In this document: piece after piece, positions 7,344 through 24,047 of the stretch
Layout of the letters: each line of letters begins with the position of its first letter
Numbering within the stretch: position 1 is the first letter of the stretch
NCBI RefSeq assembly: GCF_988243305.1
Contig: NZ_OZ547136.1
DNA: 64,000 bases
Reading direction: 5' to 3' (one strand)
The notes under the pieces: generated by a model
The model's input: only the letters and a program-made list of their open reading frames with translations
Told to the model about the DNA's origin: nothing
Databases searched by the model: none
Translations under genes and position numbers: made by a program

Positions 7344-7883
7344 ATGAAGAAAGTTTTTCTTTGCGCCATCTTAGCCTCCTTAAGCTATCCGGCTATCGCC
7401 TCATCATTGCAGGATCAACTCTCTGCTGTCGCAGAAGCGGAACAGCAAGGTAAAAATGAAGAGCAAAGGCAGCATGACGAATGGGTCGCGGAGCGCAACA
7501 GGGAAATCCAGCAAGAGAAGCAACGTCGCGCAAACGCCCAGGCCGCGGCTAATAAAAGAGCGGCAACGGCAGCGGCGAATAAGAAAGCTCGTCAGGATAA
7601 ACTGGACGCCGAAGCCTCTGCGGACAAAAAACGCGATCAAAGTTATGAAGATGAGCTACGCAGCTTAGAGATTCAGAAACAAAAACTGGCACTGGCGAAA
7701 GAAGAAGCCCGCGTTAAGCGAGAAAACGAATTTATCGATCAGGAACTGAAGCACAAAGCTGCGCAAACCGATGTGGTGCAATCTGAAGCTGACGCAAACA
7801 GAAATATGACTGAAGGCGGTCGCGATCTGATGAAAAGCGTGGGCAAAGCAGAAGAGAACAAATCGGACAGCTGGTTTAATTAA
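7344..7883 (+). CDS. yfgI: YfgI, coiled-coil periplasmic protein
   Basis: 179-aa ORF with signal peptide and an Ala/Gln/Lys/Glu-rich low-complexity region; RBS AGGAGG 6 bp upstream; 15 bp downstream of yfgH. Confidence 0.88.
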   Translation: MKKVFLCAILASLSYPAIASSLQDQLSAVAEAEQQGKNEEQRQHDEWVAERNREIQQEKQRRANAQAAANKRAATAAANKKARQDKLDAEASADKKRDQSYEDELRSLEIQKQKLALAKEEARVKRENEFIDQELKHKAAQTDVVQSEADANRNMTEGGRDLMKSVGKAEENKSDSWFN

Positions 7884-7954: not shown

Positions 7955-8210
7955 CATTCATAGTGCAGGGATCAAAATCATTCCCACTCAGCTATCAATG
8001 AGAAAATAAAATATAAATAAATCAATGCCTTGAAACAAACCACTTAGCAGATACCACGAAAAATACCATGTCTCAATAATAGAGCTGTCTACAGGCTGTT
8101 CAGACGAACAATATGGCCGCTCTACTCCTAATAGAGTCCTTAGCTCGGTCACATCACTAATTTCAACATAGATGTGAACAAAATGAGGCATCAACGCACC
8201 TATTCAGTTA

Positions 8211-9725
8211 GTGTATTTGATATCGTATGTGGCAACAAAAAATGGAGTTACAATCTTGAAAGTAAGCGAGTTATCTAGCCAAATTGGCCGACTTTACGGC
8301 TTAAACAACATCAACATAATTATGGGCCGAAACGGTGCGGGAAAAAGTCGTTTCCTTCGTGATATCGAACAAACAATCAGCCAGAACAAGCAGCAATTTT
8401 ATGTCCGGTATGTAAGTCCAGAGCGAGCAGGATCGTTCAAGCGTGATGGCACCGTCCTCACAAATATGAGCGACAACCCCGAATGGCTGAGGCACACTCG
8501 GGCAGTTAATCAGGCAAGCAACTTCAAAGCTGCATCGGCTATGCTATTTCGCGAGGCCGAGACGCTTTACTTACGTCGACTTGCCAATACTCCGGAAATT
8601 CGAACTGATCTAACGCGAAACTTTCAGACAGACCGATTAAGTAAAATTAATCAGCTTCTCACTAACATTTCGCTCGAGATGGGTAATGTCGATTATGAGT
8701 TTCGATCACTTGTAGATGGTCAGATTATTGATCCGGCCCAAATCAGTAGCGGTGAATCGGAAGCGGTTGCATTAGCCGCGGAAATCATCTATTTCTTCGA
8801 CACAATAGATCCGGAGAAATTCAACGTACTCCTCCTCGATGAGCCTGATGTACATCTGCACCCCGACCTCCAAGCTAGACTGGGCAAGCTGATAATCAGT
8901 ATGCTCGACGAATTTAGAACACACGCGAACAGTATTGCCATATGCTTATCCACCCATAGTTCCCCGCTCGTCTGTTCTCTTGCCGCCTCCCCATATGTAT
9001 CAATCGGCACGAAGAGCTTTGCAGTGAATGAAATCTCATTGATACCGGCCAGCGATGAACTTCGAAAGATTGCACCATTCTTCGGGCACCCCCTATCGCT
9101 TTCTCTTAGCGAAGACGCTGCATTAATTTTGGAAGGAGAGGACGACGAACGAGTCTGGCAACAAGCGGCCAGAACATCACAGGGTCGAATAAAAATCTTT
9201 CCCGTACTAGCAGGTAGCGTAGATCAACAGAGTCAACTTGAGGATTTTTGCGTAGACCTCCTTAGTACACTCTATGACAATCCAATCGCCTTTTCCCTTC
9301 GTGATGGCGATGGTGTAATCAACGAGTCGCTTGAACATCGCCTACCTCTTAAACGCTATCGCTTACGATGCTACGCTATCGAAAATGTTCTTTTGACTGA
9401 TTCATGCCTTGCAGTAATGAATGTTACATGGGTGGAATTTGTAGACGCAGCCAAAAAATGGGTTGAGGATAATCAAACACACTCCGACATAGCGTTGATT
9501 GCAGAACTAATGGAATCGAACGACCGATTGCGTCACAAGAAGATCAAGAAAATCCGCCAACTCGTCTGTGCTATTGTTGAGTGTAAAAAACCTTGGGAGG
9601 TAGTAGTTGGACAAGCAATCGGGGCATTGACCAGAGAAGACCTTGAAAACTCGAATATGTTGATCGATTTTCTTGGAGGAGAGATGGTCAGCGACGTCAT
9701 CTTCAGGGACGCAATAAACCCATGA
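8211..9725 (+). CDS. ABC-type ATPase (AAA_21/AAA_15-like) fused to a TOPRIM/DUF4435-like domain; OLD/PARIS/Gabija-like candidate defence nuclease
   Basis: 504-aa ORF. Walker A GRNGAGKS (8325-8348), ABC-signature-like ISSGESEAV (about 8742-8768), Walker B/D-loop VLLLDEPDVHLHPD (about 8836-8877), H-loop LSTHS. C-terminal region has ILEGEDDERVW (about 9125-9157), a DxD motif FSLRDGDGV (about 9291-9317) and YAIENVLL (about 9371-9394), consistent with an OLD-type TOPRIM/DUF4435 fold. The likely true start is the TTG at 8256, which has a GGAG Shine-Dalgarno 8 nt upstream; 8211 is an upstream in-frame GTG with no RBS. The locus is AT-rich. Confidence 0.6.
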   Translation: MYLISYVATKNGVTILKVSELSSQIGRLYGLNNINIIMGRNGAGKSRFLRDIEQTISQNKQQFYVRYVSPERAGSFKRDGTVLTNMSDNPEWLRHTRAVNQASNFKAASAMLFREAETLYLRRLANTPEIRTDLTRNFQTDRLSKINQLLTNISLEMGNVDYEFRSLVDGQIIDPAQISSGESEAVALAAEIIYFFDTIDPEKFNVLLLDEPDVHLHPDLQARLGKLIISMLDEFRTHANSIAICLSTHSSPLVCSLAASPYVSIGTKSFAVNEISLIPASDELRKIAPFFGHPLSLSLSEDAALILEGEDDERVWQQAARTSQGRIKIFPVLAGSVDQQSQLEDFCVDLLSTLYDNPIAFSLRDGDGVINESLEHRLPLKRYRLRCYAIENVLLTDSCLAVMNVTWVEFVDAAKKWVEDNQTHSDIALIAELMESNDRLRHKKIKKIRQLVCAIVECKKPWEVVVGQAIGALTREDLENSNMLIDFLGGEMVSDVIFRDAINP

Positions 9726-9740
9726 GAATGACCTGATACT

Positions 9741-10136
9741 ATGACCACGATTGATCCGCCCTCATGGTATCAGTATTTATTTTATAACCCGCCTCTCAAT
9801 ACACCAAGAGATTGCGGTAAAGTGGAGCAGCATGATTACCAGCTTTATCTGGCGATAAATGATATTGAGCATACGAAAACGAAAGCAATGTCATCTAAGA
9901 CCAATAGTATCTGCGAGCAGTTCCATAAAACGATACTGAACGAGTTTTATCAGGTGACGTTCCGCAAAAAGTTATATGATGATCTTGAAGCATTACAATC
10001 GGTTCTTGATGAATGGCGGGTTCACTATAATAATGAGCGAACCCATCAGGGAAAAATGTGCAGTGGCCGAACGCCGATGGAAACGTTACTTGATGGAAAG
10101 CACATCTGGGATGAGAAAAACTTAAGCCAGATGTAA
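9741..10136 (+). pseudogene. truncated DDE (rve/integrase-core) transposase remnant, 3' end only
   Basis: 131-aa ORF whose C-terminal ~85 aa (KTNSICEQFHKTILNEF...YNNERTHQG...GRTPME) match the C-terminal part of integrase-core DDE transposases (IS481/IS3-like), including the catalytic-E region. The N-terminal DD part is absent and the first ~50 aa look unrelated. It begins 16 bp after the ATPase stop. Confidence 0.55.
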
Positions 10137-10229
10137 TCTGACAGATACCTTTATAAATAGCCGGTAATTGTCAGATCAGGTCTGATCTTATACAACTTAA
10201 CTGTGTTATGAGCAATACTGAGGATAGAT

Positions 10230-11000
10230 ATGGAACCAGAGAAATTTGCTGAAACTGCAATAGGATTTACCAAAAGCCCTCTTGGTATCATTGCACTCTT
10301 TATTGTTCTCGTTTATGGATTTGCCTCTTTCGTCGTTGGCTTTGGTAATGGCTTATCAGAGCATATAGCTCCCCTTATTTATTTCATGGTTTTCTTTCCT
10401 GTCATTGTGTTTCTTGGCTTTCTCTGGCTTGTTGCGAAACATCATAATAAGCTTTACGGGCCGTCAGATTTCAAAGATGAAAATAATTTTTTAAGAGCGC
10501 AAATAGCTACAGCAGCATCATTGACCGCCGCCACAGCAAAACAGCCTGAAAATAGTGCAGGGGTCACTGAAAGCCAACTGCGAAAAATCGTCAACGTTGT
10601 ATCCAATGCAAAACGGCAGAGTAAGCATGAAAAATGGCGAAATCGTATTTTATGGGTGGATGATCGACCAGAAAATAATGTTTACGAAAGACAGGCATTT
10701 GAGGCACAGGGAATAGAGTTCGCTTTAGCTCTTTCAACTGACGAAGCCTTAGAATTGTTAAAAACAAATAAGTTTGCAGCTATTATTTCGGATATGGATC
10801 GCAAAGAAGGGGCGCAAGAAGGTTATGTCTTACTAGAAAGATTACGCGCAATGGGAGACAAAACTCCTTTTATGATCTATGCGTCCTCAGATCTACCAGA
10901 GCACAAGAAAATGGCGAGAGAAAGAGGTGCAATTGGCTCCACTAATCGAGCAGAAGAACTCTTTCAAATTGTCATGGGTGCGATTACCAATGGCTCATAA
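10230..11000 (+). CDS. membrane-anchored protein with C-terminal CheY-like receiver (REC)-like domain
   Basis: 256-aa ORF with SD GAGGA upstream. Two predicted TM helices (IIALFIVLVYGFASFVVGF; LIYFMVFFPVIVFLGFLWLV). The C-terminal ~120 aa follow a (beta-alpha)5 pattern with receiver-like acidic positions: ILWVDD at the end of beta1, AIISDMD at the end of beta3, FMIYASS at the end of beta4. The beta5 lysine is not obvious. Confidence 0.45.
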   Translation: MEPEKFAETAIGFTKSPLGIIALFIVLVYGFASFVVGFGNGLSEHIAPLIYFMVFFPVIVFLGFLWLVAKHHNKLYGPSDFKDENNFLRAQIATAASLTAATAKQPENSAGVTESQLRKIVNVVSNAKRQSKHEKWRNRILWVDDRPENNVYERQAFEAQGIEFALALSTDEALELLKTNKFAAIISDMDRKEGAQEGYVLLERLRAMGDKTPFMIYASSDLPEHKKMARERGAIGSTNRAEELFQIVMGAITNGS

Positions 11001-11214
11001 CAAAGCCATTAAATTCGCCCCCTACGGCTACGGTTGCCGGGCGCTCACAACGGCCAGTATCTCATTTGTCGATTTGATCGATCTCATTGTAAGCACTTCC
11101 GGCTAGACTATTTTGGAATACCGCCATTTTGTTGGTAATGGCTTTTATCTTTAGGCCATAGCCGATGTTATAGAGTTACGGCCTTAAAAATAGAAGTCAT
11201 ACACTCAATGAAAA

Positions 11215-11294: not shown

Positions 11295-12872
11295 CTACTC
11301 CCACTCAATGGTAGCTGGCGGCTTGCCGCTGATGTCATACACCACGCGGGAAATACCGTTCACTTCATTGATAATGCGGTTGGAAACGCGACCGAGGAAG
11401 TCATACGGCAGGTGCGCCCAGTGTGCGGTCATAAAGTCGATGGTTTCGACAGCACGCAGAGAAACAACCCAGTCATACTTACGACCATCGCCCATTACGC
11501 CAACAGAACGTACTGGCAGGAAGACGGTGAACGCCTGGCTGACTTTGTCGTACAGGTCCGCTTTACGCAGTTCTTCAATGAAGATGGCGTCAGCACGGCG
11601 CAGCAGGTCACAGTACTCTTTCTTCACTTCACCCAGAACACGAACGCCAAGGCCTGGTCCCGGGAACGGGTGACGGTACAGCATGTCGTACGGCAGGCCC
11701 AGCTCCAGACCAATCTTACGCACTTCGTCTTTGAACAGCTCTTTCAGCGGTTCAACCAGGCCCATCTTCATCTCTTTCGGCAGGCCGCCCACGTTGTGGT
11801 GAGATTTGATGACGTGTGCTTTACCGGTTGCAGAAGCAGCAGATTCGATAACGTCAGGGTAGATAGTGCCCTGCGCCAGCCACTTCACGTCTTCCAGTTT
11901 CAGCGCTTCTTCATCGAATACTTCAACGAAAACGCGCCCGATGATTTTACGTTTTGCTTCCGGATCATTTTCGCCAGCCAGCGCTGACAAGAAGCGATCT
12001 TCTGCCGGTACATGAACAATGTTCAGACCAAAGTGATCGCCAAACATATCCAGAACCTGCTCTGCTTCGTTGAGACGCAGCAGGCCGTTGTCGACGAATA
12101 CGCAAGTCAGGTTTTTACCGATAGCGCGGTGCAGCAGCATTGCAGTCACGGAGGAATCCACGCCACCAGAGAGGCCGAGGATCACTTTATCGTCGCCTAC
12201 CTGCTCGCGGATGCGAGCTACGGCGTCGTCGATAATTTTCGCTGGCGTCCACAGGGCTTCACACTGGCAGATATCACGCACAAAACGCTCCAGCATGCGC
12301 ATACCCTGGCGGGTGTGAGTCACTTCCGGATGGAACTGTACACCATAGAAGCGTTTTTCTTCGTTAGCCATAATGGCAAACGGGCAGCTTTCGGTGCTGG
12401 CTACGGTGACGAAGTCGGACGGGATAGCGGTAACTTTATCGCCGTGGCTCATCCAGACATCGAGCAGCGGTTTACCGTCTGCAGTCAGCGCATCTTCGAT
12501 ACCGCGAACCAGTGCGCTGTCGTTTACGACTTCAACCTGCGCGTAGCCAAATTCACGTTCGTTAGAGGCTTCAACGTGACCGCCCAACTGCATTGCCATG
12601 GTCTGCATGCCATAGCAAACGCCGAATACCGGTACGCCTGCTTCAAAGACATACTGCGGCGCACGCGGGCTGTTTTCTTCGGTGGTGCTTTCCGGGCCGC
12701 CGGAAAGAATAATGCCGCTTGGGTTGAAGTCACGAATTTGTGCTTCTGTCACATCCCACGCCCACAGTTCGCAGTAAACACCCAGTTCACGCACGCGGCG
12801 CGCAACCAGTTGAGTGTACTGAGAACCGAAGTCCAGAATGAGGATGCGATGCTTATGAATGTTTTCCGTCAT
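11295..12872 (-). CDS. guaA: GMP synthase (glutamine-hydrolysing)
   Basis: 525-aa ORF. N-terminus [36 protein letters not shown], class-I glutamine amidotransferase plus ATP-pyrophosphatase domain (SGGVDSSV), C-terminal PATIEWE. Confidence 0.97.
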
Positions 12873-16004: not shown

Positions 16005-19000
16005 TTACTGGAAGCAGGTCACCAGACCCGGTTTATTCATTAGCGTGATACTACAATCCTGTGCTCCAGTGCCTTCGTCCATTCCACACTGTTGAGAGGA
16101 CAAATAAGGAAAACTTGGTGAAGACGGCCATCCCAGTGAATTAAAAACAGTGTGCAACAACTCTAATTCATTGTATGTCGGTGCATTTTCTATGCTGCCA
16201 CACTGCCTTGCAATATCCCATTTACTGGCATCAATGATATGTGCAGAAGCCCAGTTTTCGTAGTTAATAATCGGTGAGGATACGGGATTAGCCCCGGACG
16301 GCAATTCTGTCGTTAACAACGGTCGATGTAGCGATTTACCATTCACCACTACAGTGTCTGCCATATGTCCCCAAAAGTGCGCCGAGGAAACATTCGGGCT
16401 GGTTGGTACCGTAAAAATAGCGTCCAGCGTGTCTGTCGCGGAAGCGTAATTAGCCAGAGTAACCGTCAGTGGCGTTTTATAACCAGGGGTATTATCCTGG
16501 CGGAGCGTAAAACTTGCCGTCCCATCCGCGCCTGTCATGCCACTAATGGTATTACCGCTTTCACTCAGCGTAACAGCCGAACCAGATAACGGCTGAACGA
16601 TGAGATCGTCCATCGCCACCACATCACCATACAACGTCGCCCCAGCGTTACGCGGCGATGCATCGCCACGTTTCAAAGTAAATTCCACATTCGGTACCGT
16701 ATTCCCGGCGCTGTCTTTCACCGTCACGGTAACGGGCATGGCTTCGCCTTTTTTCACTTTCGCCGCCTGAATAGCTGCGTCAAACGCTGTTGAGGTCAGT
16801 GTGACGCTGGAAACCGTTGCGCGCGCAGACACCAGACACGCCTGATAAGCGGCATTACCATTCAATGTCGTTGTGCCATCTTTCATATTGAGCGACTGAT
16901 TTTTACCATCTGTAGTCTTATCCTGCGCCCACCAGTAATAATAAACTGACCAGCCAGTTTCCGTCGTAAGGGTGTTATTGGGATAACGTTGATACAGTGA
17001 CTTCATATCGCTGAGCAACGGTTGCCGGGCTTCCTCACAAGGGCTGAGGCTGGCATTTGCTTTAGTGGTTGACGAAAAATAGGGCCAGTCCTCATTATTG
17101 TTATTGGTTTTATTTACCCCGGAGGTCGATGGCAGCTCCTTCCACAATTTCGGTCGTTCAAAGACGGTTCCATTTGCCGCTGTCACCGTTTCTGGCATAT
17201 GACCCCAGTAGTCGGCATCCTGGGCGTCAGGGCTGGTGACCACGGTAAATATCAGGTCCAGGTTTGACGTGATCTGCGGATCTTGTGCAAGCGAGACCGT
17301 AAACGGCGTTGCCAGGCCGGTGGTGGCGTTTTGCGTAACATTGAACGTCACTGTGCCATCACTGCCGGTAAAACCAAGCCATTTTGCCGTATCCTGAGCA
17401 AAGGAAATACGGGTTGCTGTCGGTGTGACGACATCTACAATAAGATCATCTGCCAACGATGAGGGCCTAATTCCTGAACGACTTTTCGCCTGCGCCCGCT
17501 GAAGCGTCACGCCCTCACCACTCACCAGGTTGCCATTTTGGTCTTTTACTGTCACGACTAACGGGATTGTCTCGCCCTTTTTCGCCGATGCCGAAGGTGT
17601 GCCGCCGTTACTGGCGGTTTTCGTCTCATCAAATGCTACTGAAGTCAGGGTAACGCTTGACGGCTTAGAGTGAGGCTGTGCCAGGCAGAGCATTAGAGCA
17701 ACCGGAGAGAGTGCGGATGATGCTCGTCCCGTGCTTAGGTTAAAGACCTGATAATACCAGGAGCTACCATTGGAGTTAAGTAATTCATAAATCCACCAGT
17801 TTCCTGACGCTATCGGCAACCCCAGATCTTTCGTTAACGCTCCGTTTGGGTGATCGTCATATAACCCCTGCAATTCGCTGAGGCGCGGTTGATATTCCAG
17901 CGAACAATCTGCCGTCGCTTTTTGAGTACTATATATATATGACCATGTCTCATTATTACCGTTTACCGAGCTCCCCGTAGTCGCTTCCGCTGCCAGTAAT
18001 GGGCGCTTGAAGGTCACGCCTGCCGAACTGGTAAACGTTTCCGGCATATGGCCCCAGTATTTCGCTTTTGGCGAATCCGGGCTGGTTATCACCGTGAAAA
18101 TGACATCCAGCGTGACGCTTTTCGAGGTATCGCGCATGAGTTCTGCGCTGAGCGGCGTTGACAGCCCATAACTGCTATTCTGGCTGACCTCAAACGTAGC
18201 TTTACCATCGCTCCCTGTCTTCAGAAGAGCCTGCGTCCCATCCCCATACAAGATTGACGTTACCCCAGTAGGTTCCACAGGTATGATGGTAAGATCATCT
18301 GCAGAGGCATCGTACGCAGCTTTAGCGCGGTTCAGCGCAGTCCCTCGTTTAAGGTTAAAGCTGGCACCTGGCAGTGGATTGCCTGCGCTATCTCGCACCG
18401 TAACCGTCATCGGGATAACCTCTCCCTTCTTCGCTGTTGCGCTGGGCCTGCCATCATTGCTGGCCGTTTTCGTTGCATCCTCCGCCGTTGAGGTCATTTC
18501 AATAGAAGCCGCCTCTGGATGAGGGTTTACCAGGCACAGCATTAATGCCGAGGTGGTTGAAGACGCTCTTCCACTTGATCCATTTAACAGATAAATATAT
18601 TGATCGTACCAGTTACCCGCATATGCCACCATGTCGTAAGCCCACCAGTAGCTATTTACCGGAATACCCAGATCGGTCTTTATCGCACGACTTGGGTGTT
18701 CGTCGTACAATGCCTGTAGTTCGCTTAACAGTGGTTGATAATGTACATCGCACCCGCTTTTATCGATATCCCCCTTTGTTGCCGATCTCAACACGGCCCA
18801 CTCTTCATTGTCTTCTATAAACGACTGGCCCGACGATCTTTCAGCAGAGAGTAAGGGGCGTTTGAAGGCAGTACCAGAACGCGTAGTGAACGTTTCCGCC
18901 ATATGCCCCCAGTAACTTGCCAGGGGGGTATCCGGGCTGGTTATCACGGTAAACATCACGGGTAATTTGTTGGATTCCAGGCTCGACTGATAGGCCTGAG

Positions 19001-22000
19001 CGTACACATTGGTTACCAGGCCTATAGAATCATCCTGCTTTACCGTAAACGTGGCTGTCCCGTCTGCACCTGTCACCGCATAAAGGGAGATTGATGGAGT
19101 ATCCACTCTTGCCGACGTTCCCGCAGCGTTGATTACAGAGATAGTTCTGTTCGACAACTGTACATTCTGGCGATTTGTCGATCCTTCACGTTTGAGAATA
19201 AACGGAACATTTGGTACGACATTTCCCTGCGCATCTTTTGTCACCACGCGAATCACCGCGTCGTCACCTTTTTTCCGTTTTAGTGCGCTGAGGGTTTCGT
19301 CAACTTTGACAAATTGTGTCGCATCGTTCGCTTCAACAATAATGTGGCTGGTCACCGCCACTGGGGTAGCCCGACAACTTAGCAGTCCTATACTGCTTGA
19401 CATGACCTCCGTTCCATCACCCGTTTTTAACGAAACCGCTTTAAAATTAAATGTTTGAGTGTAATAGGCAACAACCGTACTGGAGATATAGGCGCGTGAT
19501 ACAGGCCATCCCGTAACGTCATGTATTGGCACGTAACCTTCATCGGCATACAGTGACTCCAGCTCACTTTCAATCGGGACATATCCTGCACCGCAACCAT
19601 TTACAGATGTGTTGTTCGACTGGTCCGGCGAGAACAGTGACCAGCTCTCTCCATCTTCCTGAAAAGAGCTTCGACTGGTTGTAACGGAAAGCTCATCTTG
19701 CAATAACGGTCTTTTATAAATAAGCCCGCCTGCACCGGTCATCGTTTCGGCCATATGCCCCCAGAATTTTGCTTTAGGGGTATCGGGGCTGGTTATCACC
19801 GTAAAGACTACCGGAAGCATTGATTTTACGTTATTATCTGTATCCAGCATGGCGGTCAGTTCGGTTTTTAAACCCGTGGTATTGTCCTGTTTCAGTGCAA
19901 GTGTTGTCGTACCATCTGCGCCGGTAACGCCATAAATCAGTGCTGTTGTTGAGGAAAAATTACTCTGCGTGTTACCCCAGGCATCCGTCACGATGAGCGC
20001 GCCTGCTGTCACCGTTGTAGACGCATTTGCCCGATTGACGCTAAGGTTACGTTTAAGCGTAAACGCGGTATTTCCCACCGGGTTACCCTGCGAATCTTTA
20101 GTGGTCACGCGAACCACGACTTCTTCCCCTTTTTTCGCTTTGACAACATTATTCGTACTGTCAAATTTTGTGGGGTCCGCAGCCTCAAGAACGATTTGGC
20201 TAGCCTTGACGATCGGCGTCGTCTGGCAGGTAAGCAGTTCTTTTGTGGCCGATGGAATTATCGAACTGGTGCCTGAACTGAGATTGACGGCCTTGAAGTC
20301 ACGCTGTTCCAGACTACTGCTGGCTGTCGTGCTGGTAAGGTAACTTGAGGCGACGGGCCAGCCCTGAACCGTTTTCATCGCATTGCCACGGTTGGCTTCA
20401 TACAATGACTCCAGCCCGGCCTGAGAGGGAACATATTCACTACCACAACCATTAGAGGATGTGCTTGTCGCCTGAGTTTGGGTAAATTGCGCCCAGTCCT
20501 CATTATCTTCTGCAATCGCTGTTCGACCCGACGTACTGGATAACTCTTTCAACAATAATGGGCGTTTAAAGACCGTTCCATCCGCAGCCGTCACCGTTTC
20601 CGGCATATGCCCCCACATTTTCGCTTTATTGCTGTCCGGGCTGGTGACAACGGTAAAAATGGTATCGAGGGTCGCTTTTTTCGTTGTGTCTGAATAGAGC
20701 GCAGCGGTCAGCGACGTTTTTGTGCCATGGGTATCCGGGCGGGTAATAGTGAGAATTTTAGTGCCATCGCTGCCGGTCATCGCGCTGTATGCTGCGGCGG
20801 TATCATTGAGCGAAGTTTCATCCGCCAGGCCACTATTGATCACAACCGGCGCAACCAGCGCATCACCGCTACCGGCAATGTGTTTTTCGTTTGATCGTGT
20901 ATAACCATCGCCACGCTTCAGGGTAAAAGGCATATCACCCAATGGATTGCCCTGAGCATCTTTTACCGTCACCTTCACCTGTAGCGTTTCGCCTTTTTTC
21001 AGCTTCGCCGCATTTGCTGCCGCGTTCCACTGCGCCGGGTCCACCACTTCCAGCGTAATGCTGCTGGCAGGATTGTTAGCCGTCGTCAGGCAACTGACAT
21101 AAACCGCCGTGCTACCGCCAACGGTCCGCGCGCCATCGTTGAGGGCTATGGTGTAGTAATGCGGCACCTGATCCGCGGGCGAACTGCTCCAGTAGGGCTG
21201 ACGCTGCGTTGGCCAACCGTGTACCGTTTGAACGGCGTTACCGCTGTTAGCATCATAGAGCGCGTTAAGCTGGGAACGGCGTGGGAGCATATTGGCACCA
21301 CAGCCACCTTTACTGGTGCTGGAAGTGTTGGCCTGGCTAACGCGCGACCACACTTCGTTATTTTCCGTTAATGTGCCGTCCGGGCTGGACACTTCCGCAG
21401 CCAGCCGGGGTCGGGCAAAGGTTAATGCATCGACGGTAATCGTCTCATCCATATGCCCCCACATCTGCGCGCCAACCGCATCCGGACTGGTGAGCGTAGT
21501 GAAAATCACATTGTAATTAACAGTATTGGGAATATAGGAGTTTACAGGCGCAATATTCAGCGGCGTCGCTAAGCCCACACCTTGCGGTTGCTTAATTTCA
21601 ACAGTAGCAAAACCCTGCGCATCCGTAGTACCTGCATAGACTAAAGACGGTTGCGATGTTCCGTAGAGCGTGCCATTCATCTCGATTGCGCCGCGGGTTG
21701 GATCATCGAAACCCGTGGTCTGCCCCTGACGATTTTTCCCCATATCTTTCGTGATGGTGAACGCGGTATACGGCACGGGCGCATTATTCAAGGCATTAAA
21801 GGTGCGTACCGTCATGGTAATCGTTTCACCCACTTTAGCCTGCGCTCTGCTGCTTGTGGAAACATCATGATCGGTGTTCGCAGCAATCTGGGCGACCATC
21901 TCATTGCCCGAACAAGAAAGGTAGTTTTGCTTAAAGCCGGAATAGGTGTCGATGTTGCCCGTGGCCAGGTTCACCGACGCGTGCGACGTCTCTTCCACCG

Positions 22001-24047
22001 CACTAAGATACGCTTTTTGCAACGTTGGCCAGCCATATTCGGTGCCGATGACATTGGCTGGATGTGCGGCAAACAAACTGTGCAATGAGCTTTGGCTCGG
22101 AATATGACCTAAACCACACTCAGCCTGCATACTGCTATTCTGATCAAACAGCGCCCAGTCTTCGTTATTTTCCCGCACTGCTCCCAGTTCGTTGTCGGTT
22201 TCATCCGCCAGCCGTGGGCGTTTAAAGATATTATTCGCTTCAATAATGCCTAACATATGTCCCCACATCCGCGCTTTGTCGGAATCAGGGCTGGTGATCA
22301 CCGTAAAAATAACGTCTTTCTCATCCGAGGCGGTAAAATCACTGCGCATTTTCGCGGTGATGTGTGTTTTCACCCCCACGCCGCCTGGCTGGGTCAGCGT
22401 CAGAGAGGCCTCTCCGTTAGCATCAGTGATCCCTTCATAGGTATGGGCGTCAACTTTGCGAACGTTACTGCCACCATCAATTTGTACCGGGTGCGTCTCC
22501 CACGCAGCGTCAGTTTGATTCTTACGGTTAACACCGTCATCCAGATGCAGCGAAAAGTAGTAGTAAGCCAGCGGCTGATCGTTGTTCTTGCTATCGGTAA
22601 TCGTCAGGCGTAAAGAAGCCTCTTCCCCCACCTTTACTTTCATCGCTTTTATCGTCGAATCATAACTGCCCGGCGTCAGTACCAGCTTCGGTTCAACATC
22701 GGGCGCTTCTTTATCGACACAGCTCACAATAAACGTCGTATCGTCCGGTTTTTGCGCTTCGCTGCGGTTCGAAACATCCGCCGCATGGTGCTGGCCACTC
22801 ATCCCCGCCAGTGATGACCAGTAGAAATTACCCTGCATCGGCCAACCAGCCACATCCTGCACTGACGTTGGCACCACCGTCGCCAGCGCACCGAACTGAC
22901 GCATTCCGGGCAAAATGTCGCAATGTTTATCCGCGCCGCTCCAGGTAAAGGTGGACCAGGTTTCATTGTGATCGTTAACCGTACCGTTTTCATTATCGAC
23001 TTCCGCCGCCAGTTTTGGTCGACTAAAAGTGTAATCACGGGCCTTCAGCGTATCGGGCATATGACCCCACATTGTAGCCTGCGGGACATCCGGGCTGGTG
23101 AGGACGGTAAAGATCACTGCCGTTTCACTGGCCTGAGCAATACCCGCGAGGCTCGCGACCAACGGCGTTTTTACACCAAGGCCGTTGGCCTGGGTGACCG
23201 TAACCGTGGCAACACCATTCGCATCGGTAGTACCACGATATTCCGTCGCGGTGGTGGTTAATTCGGTCGTGCCCAGTTTTACCGGCGCAGTATTGTTCAC
23301 TACACCCTGGCGGTTTTCAGCATCTTTGCGTTTGATAACAAAAGGAATATTCCCCACAACATTACCGACGCAATCTTTGGTGGTGACCGTTAACGTGATA
23401 CTGCCGCCAACCGTCGTTTTCGCCGCACCGGAGGATTCGTCATAGCCCGCGGCGCTGACGGAAATAAGGTCACCCTGCGCGGGCGCAATCTTCAGCGTCA
23501 CTTTCTGATCGGCGAGCGTCAGAACACTTTCATAGGGATAGCCCGTCGAGGTGAGTAAATATAACAGCGGCATGGTCTGTTGGGGATCAGGCTGCGCCCA
23601 GGCGACCAGCGAACGCCCGGCAAGTCCCTGAGCGCAAAACGAGCGATCTGCGACTGGCTGTGGGTCCAGTAAGGTGTCCGGCGTCGCGGCATCCGCCCAA
23701 ACTAAAGATACTGTCGGTGGCGTTTGGTTTTCCCAACGTGGGGTGGAAATGATATCGCCTTCTCTGTCTTGCGGATTGGTGACGAGCAATTTAGAGACGC
23801 TAATATCCGCGCTGAATTCACTCGGTTTAGCGGTAAACGCTACCTCATGCGTCTTTGCAGGATCCAGAAAGACACTGCCCTGGTAGACGGGTATGCTGGC
23901 ACTGTCGGCGGTGGGCACGGTACCGTTAAATTCGCCGACCGTATCTGAAGAGTCTTGCCATGCAGATTCTGCCCATGACCGCCCAGGCAGCATTGCGCTT
24001 ATCAGCAATGCGCATAACACAAGGATTTTATTCAGGGTCAGGGACAT
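16005..24047 (-). CDS. ratA: RatA-like giant secreted/outer-membrane repeat protein (Big_1-like Ig domains)
   Basis: 2680-aa ORF with signal peptide [26 protein letters not shown]. Nine copies of a ~200-aa module, each with a Big_1-like segment (KKGE..v.VTVKD..GNpv.n..FtLKR) and a conserved IFTVxTSPD....WGHMxET motif. Sits with sinI/sinH between xseA and yfgJ, like the Salmonella CS54 island. Confidence 0.8.

Follow-up and report, generated by a model that had tools for sequence, protein, structure and literature searches.

In the stretch of DNA analysed here (64,000 nucleotides; hereafter the window), a segment of the E. coli chromosome from contig NZ_OZ547136.1 of NCBI RefSeq assembly GCF_988243305.1, the open reading frame (ORF) at 10230–11000 on the plus strand encodes a 256-residue protein in which two transmembrane (TM) helices are joined through a linker to a C-terminal receiver (REC) domain. 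The gene is complete (stop codon included in the coordinates), as judged from the ORF list, the coding sequence called by the Prokaryotic Genome Annotation Pipeline (PGAP), homologues and the ratio of nonsynonymous to synonymous substitution rates (dN/dS). PGAP annotates it as 'response regulator' (WP_085458948.1). We refer to the architecture as 2TM-REC and propose, tentatively, that it may be an autonomous one-protein module of the conflict or defence (abortive-infection) type, combining a switch with a membrane effector. Its parts would be a conserved membrane hairpin of two helices, a helical linker of variable sequence and a receiver domain, probably cytoplasmic and independent of histidine kinases (HKs), that serves as the on/off switch.

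Hydropathy analysis reveals two strong TM segments, with Kyte–Doolittle peaks at residues 18–36 (2.67) and 50–68 (2.57). An AlphaFold2 model based on 71 homologues (mean pLDDT 87.4) has N-terminal helices at residues 17–38 and 43–75, linker helices at 84–104 and 114–126, and a five-strand β-α repeat over 139–254, with strands at 139–143, 163–167, 184–188, 214–217 and 236–238. Hydropathy, model and conservation together define TM helix 1 as residues 18–40 (10281–10349, plus strand, as for all parts of the protein), with near-invariant P17-L18-G19, L23 and Y29, and TM helix 2 as residues 46–70 (10365–10439), with conserved F52, F56, P57, V60, F64 and L67. Only about five residues separate the two. 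Beyond them lie a juxtamembrane motif, KLYGPSDF (residues 74–81; 10449–10472), which is invariant in 34 close homologues, and the linker (residues 85–135; 10482–10634), which is modelled as helical and is the least conserved part of the protein.

Residues 136–254 (10635–10991) form a divergent receiver domain, an assignment based on Pfam, AlphaFold2, Foldseek, alignments to hidden Markov models (HMMs) of PDB entries, and invariant columns. Pfam Response_reg (PF00072) matches residues 140–235 over model positions 1–94 of 111 (E = 2.1e-7, 31.5 bits). In a Foldseek search of the PDB, the top 50 hits are all receiver domains, with target template-modelling scores up to 0.86 and a root-mean-square deviation of ∼2 Å over ∼120 aligned residues. 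The RcsC receiver is among the best NCBIfam and PDB sequence similarities.

The acidic pair D144/D145 (WVDD; 10659–10664) and the acceptor-equivalent D188 (ISDMD; 10791–10793) are invariant in the 71 homologues, as are W142, R191 (10800–10802) and G198. R191 lies three residues past the acceptor Asp, in a β3-α3 loop that is two residues longer than usual. HMM alignment to the RcsC and CheY receivers puts A218 at the position of the canonical β4 Thr/Ser and R240 at that of the canonical β5 Lys. Neither position is conserved across the wider family, residue 240 being Arg in the close clade and Asp, Asn, Ser or another residue elsewhere. Given the invariance of D144, D145, D188, R191 and G198, the canonical pocket can be regarded as the functional core, and its conservation points to phosphoryl or phospho-ligand chemistry that would proceed without a dedicated kinase. 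A preliminary description of the gene, made from the letters alone, had proposed two N-terminal TM helices and a C-terminal phospho-receiver-like domain, pointed to WVDD and ISDMD among its acidic positions, and remarked that the usual β5 lysine was not evident. All of this agrees with the hydropathy peaks, the modelled helices, the receiver-type (flavodoxin-like) fold, the three invariant aspartates and the alignment of R240.

Receivers of the same clade, 50–65% identical over residues 132–253 (P0201, P0214, P0217, P0222, P0234, P0236, P0256 and P0267), have in common the motifs WVDDRPxNN, SDMGRxEGxxEGY and GAxGSTN. Such a receiver lies C-terminal to a TIR domain in 5 of 30 sampled proteins. 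It is also found C-terminal to an EACC1-type caspase, a KGGVGR ParA-like ATPase with tetratricopeptide repeats (TPRs) or TIR, nSTAND1, VMAP/SAV_2336 N-terminal modules with a restriction endonuclease, and an FtsZ-like domain. Among the best 150 of the 50%-identity representatives, 82 are 2TM-REC, 18 have a single TM helix before the receiver, and 30 (of at least 200 residues) have none. TIR, caspase and TM modules are effectors fired by induced proximity, and activated receivers self-associate. The recurrent layout of effector, linker and receiver therefore suggests that these proteins share the receiver as an oligomerising switch and that the conserved hairpin is the effector.

Conservation within the protein is consistent with an active role for the hairpin. 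Mean top-residue frequency is 0.61–0.68 for the TM helices and juxtamembrane motif, 0.57 for the receiver and 0.30 for the linker; the loop, predicted to be periplasmic, is as variable as the linker (∼0.3). Because the hairpin is as conserved as the receiver and the linker is not, we argue that the hairpin is more than an anchor. It also occurs in another setting. A 213-residue protein on a metagenomic viral contig (locus L029, 4241–4882) is 47% identical to residues 6–89 and keeps both the 2TM hairpin and KLYGPSDF, followed by an unrelated, non-receiver C-terminal domain. Its gene stands immediately 3' of a CI/LexA-like repressor gene, a typical exclusion-gene position. Used as query, the N-terminal 104 residues brought up nothing but short proteins and fragments, which left the fusion partners of the hairpin unmapped.

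The family is large and widespread. Homologues fall into more than 2000 clusters at 90% identity, nearly all of ∼256 residues; clustering at 50% identity gives 4224 representatives, of which 172 score below 1e-30. Among the carriers are Klebsiella, Kluyvera, Dickeya, Pectobacterium, Buttiauxella, Vibrio, Pseudoalteromonas, Pseudomonas, Acidithiobacillus and Nitrosomonas, as well as metagenome-assembled genomes (MAGs) of Chlorobium, Sulfuritalea and Kiritimatiellae. The E. coli copy shares 85–88% amino acid and 72–76% nucleotide identity with those of Chlorobium, Acidithiobacillus and Sulfuritalea; in these cross-phylum comparisons synonymous sites are saturated, dN is 0.07–0.13, and dN/dS, where definable, is 0.017–0.057. 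High amino acid identity with saturated synonymous sites indicates strong constraint rather than recent transfer and, judging from these rates, the receiver family is under strong purifying selection. Carriage by plasmids was considered and rejected, the sole full-length match in PLSDB being a 4.9-Mb record that is apparently a chromosome. A phage origin was likewise rejected: 50,697 phage genomes contained no match, and the matches in IMG/VR are prophage-boundary overshoots that take in the chromosomal islet described below.

The receiver gene is autonomous and singly mobile. Its ∼14 independent contexts, which together with three lineages of a neighbouring ATPase gene (rather than hundreds of loci) form the basis of our co-occurrence analysis, have no neighbour in common; the genome contig scan yielded only six loci. 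In Kluyvera, a CSS-EAL gene and an insertion sequence (IS) remnant precede the receiver gene, guaA follows it, and the ATPase gene is absent. Elsewhere the receiver gene lies near a KAP NTPase, a relaxase and TrbL on a conjugative-element contig; within an integrase-linked cluster of PemK, HigB, ParE and PIN toxin–antitoxin genes in Acidithiobacillus; and, in Dickeya, once at a chromosomal site and once on a P4-like element with AlpA and a DUF927 primase. Other sites are a ParB-linked MAG contig, Chlorobium, an IS30-flanked position in Kiritimatiellae, purE–hemF in Sulfuritalea, and a metagenomic contig with Amj/GntR. Pseudomonas cavernicola provides a further context, where genes for a 253-residue protein, an adenosine-deaminase-family protein and a Ham1/ITPase-like protein lie ∼1 kb upstream (locus L006, 4804–6922). 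This three-gene run could be a nucleotide-targeting defence-like cluster.

A case of independent movement comes from Vibrio cyclitrophicus (locus L010), where ∼121-nt repeats resembling VCR/attC sites, at ∼7461–7537 and ∼8761–8891, flank the gene (8001–8774). The same repeats (TAACAAAC...GGCGTTAT) follow every neighbouring small-ORF cassette, in an array that also carries ParE/Phd, TacA/GNAT and HEPN cassettes and copies of IS3. With such repeats on both sides, the gene forms an integron cassette by itself in V. cyclitrophicus, though not in E. coli. No locus contains a second copy of the receiver clade within 8–10 kb. No HK or Hpt gene adjoins the receiver gene in the ∼14 contexts, and any HK at all lies within 8 kb in only two loci, in unrelated core operons. 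Neighbours of the vWA, MoxR or STAND type are absent from every context; the gene stands alone, not in an NTPase-regulated multigene system. The literature yielded nothing specific on the protein accession, on KGGVGR, on guaA as a hotspot, or on a response regulator in integron cassettes.

Taken together, these observations suggest how the protein might act. The Asp-Asp/Asp metal–phosphoryl pocket would take a phosphoryl group from a small phospho-donor, or would bind a ligand that is phosphorylated or a nucleotide, once something such as phage infection upsets the physiology of the cell. The receiver domains would then self-associate, as phosphorylated receivers generally do, and would bring the hairpins together, so that the inner membrane is perturbed and growth is stopped. 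We infer the trigger, the oligomerisation, the membrane damage and the anti-phage role of 2TM-REC from its domains and their relatives. A more far-reaching version, which we regard as doubtful, would make 2TM-REC a widespread and previously unrecognised single-gene immune or abortive module and the first autonomous 'one-component' receiver, in which an Arg-containing pocket replaces the Thr/Lys switch, senses an infection-induced phospho-donor or nucleotide and gates a membrane-disrupting hairpin. In that version TIR, caspase and STAND proteins would have adopted the same switch as a universal trigger of oligomerisation.

The proposed design has precedents. Effectors of CBASS, Pycsar and type III CRISPR systems fuse a small cytoplasmic ligand sensor to one to four membrane-disrupting TM helices, and the same sensor can equally be joined to a TIR or nuclease effector. 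The likeness is in design logic (sensor plus TM effector). Those systems encode a cyclase alongside, whereas 2TM-REC comes with no signal generator and its fold is not that of SAVED, cyclic nucleotide monophosphate-binding or CARF domains.

Closer in sequence are the receivers of conflict systems without HKs, for which Kaur, Burroughs, Iyer and Aravind (2020/2021; PMC7159879, PMC8195603), in the passages dealing with them, propose a role as nucleotide-responsive switches. The receiver of 2TM-REC is 50–65% identical to receivers in VMAP/SAV_2336-N, caspase, KGGVGR-ATPase, TIR and nSTAND proteins, and likewise has no kinase partner. The systems described in those passages are large, multidomain or multigene and NTPase-regulated, whereas 2TM-REC is a solo gene of 256 codons' worth of protein with a TM hairpin only; the receiver-domain passages of the two papers make no mention of its architecture. 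That receivers can gate immune effectors has been shown experimentally for Detocs, which consists of the kinase DtcA, the buffer receiver DtcB and the receiver-effector DtcC (bioRxiv 10.1101/2023.01.24.525353). There, too, a receiver gates a cell-killing anti-phage effector, and some DtcC variants have TM effectors. However, Detocs has its cognate kinase and buffer receiver in one operon and its receiver N-terminal, whereas 2TM-REC has neither partner and its receiver is C-terminal. For want of a kinase and a second receiver in the neighbourhood, membership in Detocs was rejected.

Two other classes of receiver were compared. Canonical CheY-like receivers (PF00072) share with 2TM-REC the (βα)5 fold, the HMM match, the acidic pair and the acceptor Asp. 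They differ in having a cognate kinase, in the β4 Thr/Ser (Ala or variable in 2TM-REC) and β5 Lys (Arg or variable), in lacking the two-residue insertion with an invariant Arg in the β3-α3 loop, and in standing N-terminal to an output domain rather than C-terminal to a TM hairpin. The cREC domain (PF20274) is a divergent receiver tied to NAD/ADP-ribose and cyclic-phosphate processing (Iyer et al. 2021, PMC7824862); it, too, is a receiver fold outside two-component systems that keeps the catalytic aspartates. The match of our protein to cREC_REC is weak (E = 0.007, versus 2e-7 for the generic Response_reg), and no NAD/ADP-ribose or RNA-repair genes are among its neighbours, so cREC membership was rejected on both match and context. 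The DefensePredictor paper mentions a predicted system containing REC, to which the 2TM-REC family could not be linked.

Several observations weigh against a switch-and-effector module devoted to defence. In P0214 (ATPase-TPR-REC) and in the VMAP proteins, the receiver occupies the terminal effector slot, and in these relatives it may be an effector or adaptor rather than a switch. Without the Thr and Lys of the canonical switch, the protein may not be activated by phosphorylation in the classical way. At codon 190 (10797–10799), two residues past D188, the E. coli/Klebsiella allele has a rare Asp (DMDR) where 206 of ∼250 relatives have Gly (DMGR). Constraint is relaxed in the guaA-linked enterobacterial lineage, with dN/dS of 0.30 against Kluyvera, and in Rosenbergiella nectarea (locus L017, 10001–10629) the receiver copy, directly beside guaA, guaB and xseA, is a pseudogene, frameshifted and N-terminally truncated. 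For the family as a whole, sequence conservation is very strong, which is not usual among immune genes, since these often diversify. Some contexts (L016, L021) are plain housekeeping neighbourhoods, no family in PADLOC-DB v2.0.0 matches the receiver protein at E-values up to 0.1 in a search whose libraries date from no later than 2023, and there is the absence from the phage genomes noted above. Defence, toxicity and phosphorylation are putative attributes of 2TM-REC, proposed from sequence comparison.

One alternative is that the receiver itself is the active component and the TM helices merely localise it. As an effector it could work at the membrane, where, as phosphatase, phosphate sink or nucleotide-processing domain, it would deplete or cleave some phosphorylated metabolite or an intermediate in signalling; or it could be a homotypic adaptor, recruited by receiver-bearing STAND or VMAP sensors. 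The terminal position of the domain in P0214 and the VMAP proteins agrees with this idea, as do the conservation of the active-site loops at enzyme-like levels in all architectures and the invariant R191 in place of the usual Lys chemistry. In addition, Kaur et al. class these receivers as effector domains in VMAP-ternary, iSTAND2 and TERNS3 systems (PMC7159879, PMC8195603). However, a hairpin that serves only as anchor leaves unexplained why it is conserved like the receiver and recurs with a non-receiver C-terminus, and with no second member of the clade within 8–10 kb in any locus, no adaptor partner is encoded nearby. Moreover, receiver domains are not known to have any catalytic activity beyond auto-dephosphorylation. 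We consider this alternative unlikely.

Somewhat less probable still is ordinary signalling by an orphan response regulator of conventional type, in which a chromosomal (hybrid) HK would phosphorylate 2TM-REC in trans and the protein would serve at the membrane as a single-domain regulator or a phosphate sink. There is good precedent for single-domain receivers, CheY being one, the Response_reg match is significant, the similarities include the RcsC receiver, and the DD/D pocket is intact. However, the lack of an adjacent HK or Hpt gene in the ∼14 contexts and the absence of the Thr and Lys of the canonical switch speak against this reading. Movement between phyla as a single cassette also fits poorly with dependence on one specific kinase, and the nearest relatives of the domain are in TIR, caspase and STAND proteins, not in two-component regulators.

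The remaining alternatives concern the E. coli locus. The window has the gene order ppx, pdeF, yfgG, yfgH, yfgI, islet, guaA, guaB, xseA and a large adhesin gene. The 3.3-kb islet lies between yfgI and guaA, which in K-12 are separated by 92 bp, and contains the ABC-type ATPase gene, an IS481-family transposase remnant and the receiver ORF. Among 5426 complete E. coli genomes, only 27 have the full islet, always at the yfgI–guaA site. As the preliminary description had supposed, this is an accessory rather than a conserved core gene; together with the Pfam, AlphaFold2, Foldseek and hydropathy results, the distribution bears out a stand-alone, membrane-tethered receiver in an accessory islet. 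Its remark that no HK, Hpt or DNA-binding output gene is nearby also holds within ∼6 kb on either side of the receiver gene. A terminator-like hairpin with a T-run, found by consensus scan only, lies 3' of the receiver gene (11123–11152, plus strand). A second accessory insertion follows directly on xseA, at the place of yfgJ and der in K-12: a gene for a repetitive 'adhesion domain-containing' protein of 2680 residues (16005–24047, minus strand).

Comparison with K-12 reveals a 9-bp direct repeat, TCCCACTCA, at both ends of the islet. The left copy (7982–7990) lies at the displaced original 3' end of guaA, and the right copy (11299–11307) lies inside the last codons of guaA. The left junction keeps the K-12-type guaA end (TCATTCCCACTCA), and guaA now ends in the variant CTACTCCCACTCA, with stop codon TAG. 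The islet looks like a site-specific integration into the guaA 3' end whose integrase is no longer present. In other E. coli strains (IMG/VR contigs L025–L028), a prophage with genes for an Rz-like spanin, endolysin, tailspike, Ant anti-repressor and virion protein starts exactly at the guaA 3' end, corresponding to window position 11309. A prophage start at this junction identifies it as an att-type integration site, and places the islet beside an active phage attachment site.

It is conceivable that the family is functional and that the E. coli copy is a decaying hitch-hiker of an old guaA element, inactive now. The missing integrase, the IS481 remnant and the att-like bounding repeats are in keeping with this picture, and so are G190D, the dN/dS of 0.30 (against 0.02–0.06 elsewhere), the frameshifted Rosenbergiella gene and an IS-disrupted ATPase gene next to the Klebsiella copy. 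Yet the ORF is intact and has a good Shine–Dalgarno-like element (GAGGA, read from the sequence at 10220–10224, plus strand, 5 nt upstream of the ATG), and all 27 E. coli copies are full length and at least 99.6% identical. Only six residues of the E. coli protein depart from the 80% consensus, five of them conservatively, and a non-Gly residue occurs at position 190 in ∼15% of family members. We consider decay improbable.

Next to the receiver gene lies the ATPase gene (8256–9725, plus strand), whose product is of the AAA_15/AAA_21 type with a weak DUF4435/TOPRIM-like C-terminus, as judged from Pfam, PADLOC and its solo contexts. Its best PADLOC matches are PDC-M01A, AriA and AriAB. The longest ORF runs from a GTG at 8211 (504 residues); PGAP and nearly all homologues start 45 nt downstream, at 8256 (489 residues). 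The family, ∼487–489 residues long and 66–99% identical, occurs in Enterobacterales, Pseudomonas, Rhizobiales and sphingomonads. No receiver gene lies near the homologues (80–94% identical) of P. aeruginosa, Serratia and Mesorhizobium. The ATPase gene occurs on its own, and P. aeruginosa and Serratia marcescens, too, have it adjoining guaA; one Pseudomonas locus has TrbI and an nSTAND-like gene beside it. Conversely, tblastn searches of all receiver loci detected an ATPase homologue only in the E. coli/Klebsiella islet lineage and in none of the ∼13 other contexts.

Between the two genes lies the C-terminal remnant of an IS481-family transposase (9806–10136, plus strand; NCBIfam IS481, E = 9e-23; a pseudogene in PGAP), which forms the left part of the receiver module and is also found upstream of the receiver gene in Kluyvera, Klebsiella and the conjugative-element contig. 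DNA alignment reveals a seam at ∼9805/9806. Sequence to its left is common to ATPase-only loci (Pseudomonas, Serratia), and sequence to its right to receiver loci (Kluyvera, conjugative contig). Because the shared flanks switch at this point, the ATPase and receiver genes are separate modules juxtaposed at a hotspot. The 131-residue 'transposase' ORF (9741–10136) crosses the seam and hence begins with ∼22 codons of non-IS origin. In K. pneumoniae (locus L018, 4766–7496), where the same islet stands beside guaA, an IS3-family insertion splits the ATPase gene and leaves the receiver gene intact and 99% identical; ∼20 similar Klebsiella contigs exist.

The preliminary description had suggested that the receiver might be an effector or sensor partner of the upstream ATPase-nuclease. 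The two genes do adjoin on the same strand in 27 of 27 E. coli islets, and the ATPase resembles defence ATPases of the PDC-M01A, AriA/AriAB and PtuA types; but all E. coli and Klebsiella pairs trace to one islet, at least 99% identical, and with the seam and IS remnant between the genes, ∼13 receiver contexts without the ATPase, three other ATPase lineages without the receiver, and the ATPase split in Klebsiella, a two-gene system is very improbable. The co-occurrence check that the description had called for thus turned up a single islet lineage. Its other suggestion, an unrelated passenger, fits the relationship to the ATPase better, although a member of a large and highly constrained family is not junk. 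Rather than an operon, the yfgI–guaA islet is a mosaic in which two independent solo genes have come together at the attachment site of a phage or an integrative and conjugative element, and the local picture is corrected accordingly.

Receiver domains are the textbook output end of HK signalling. Here is a family of more than 2000 clusters, present as a lone gene across phyla, that has kept the phospho-acceptor pocket and dropped both the kinase and the classical switch residues. It offers a testable entry to the question of how kinase-independent receivers in conflict systems are activated, a question so far raised by comparative genomics only. If 2TM-REC proves protective, it would represent a compact one-gene defence of 771 bp with a new sensing principle.

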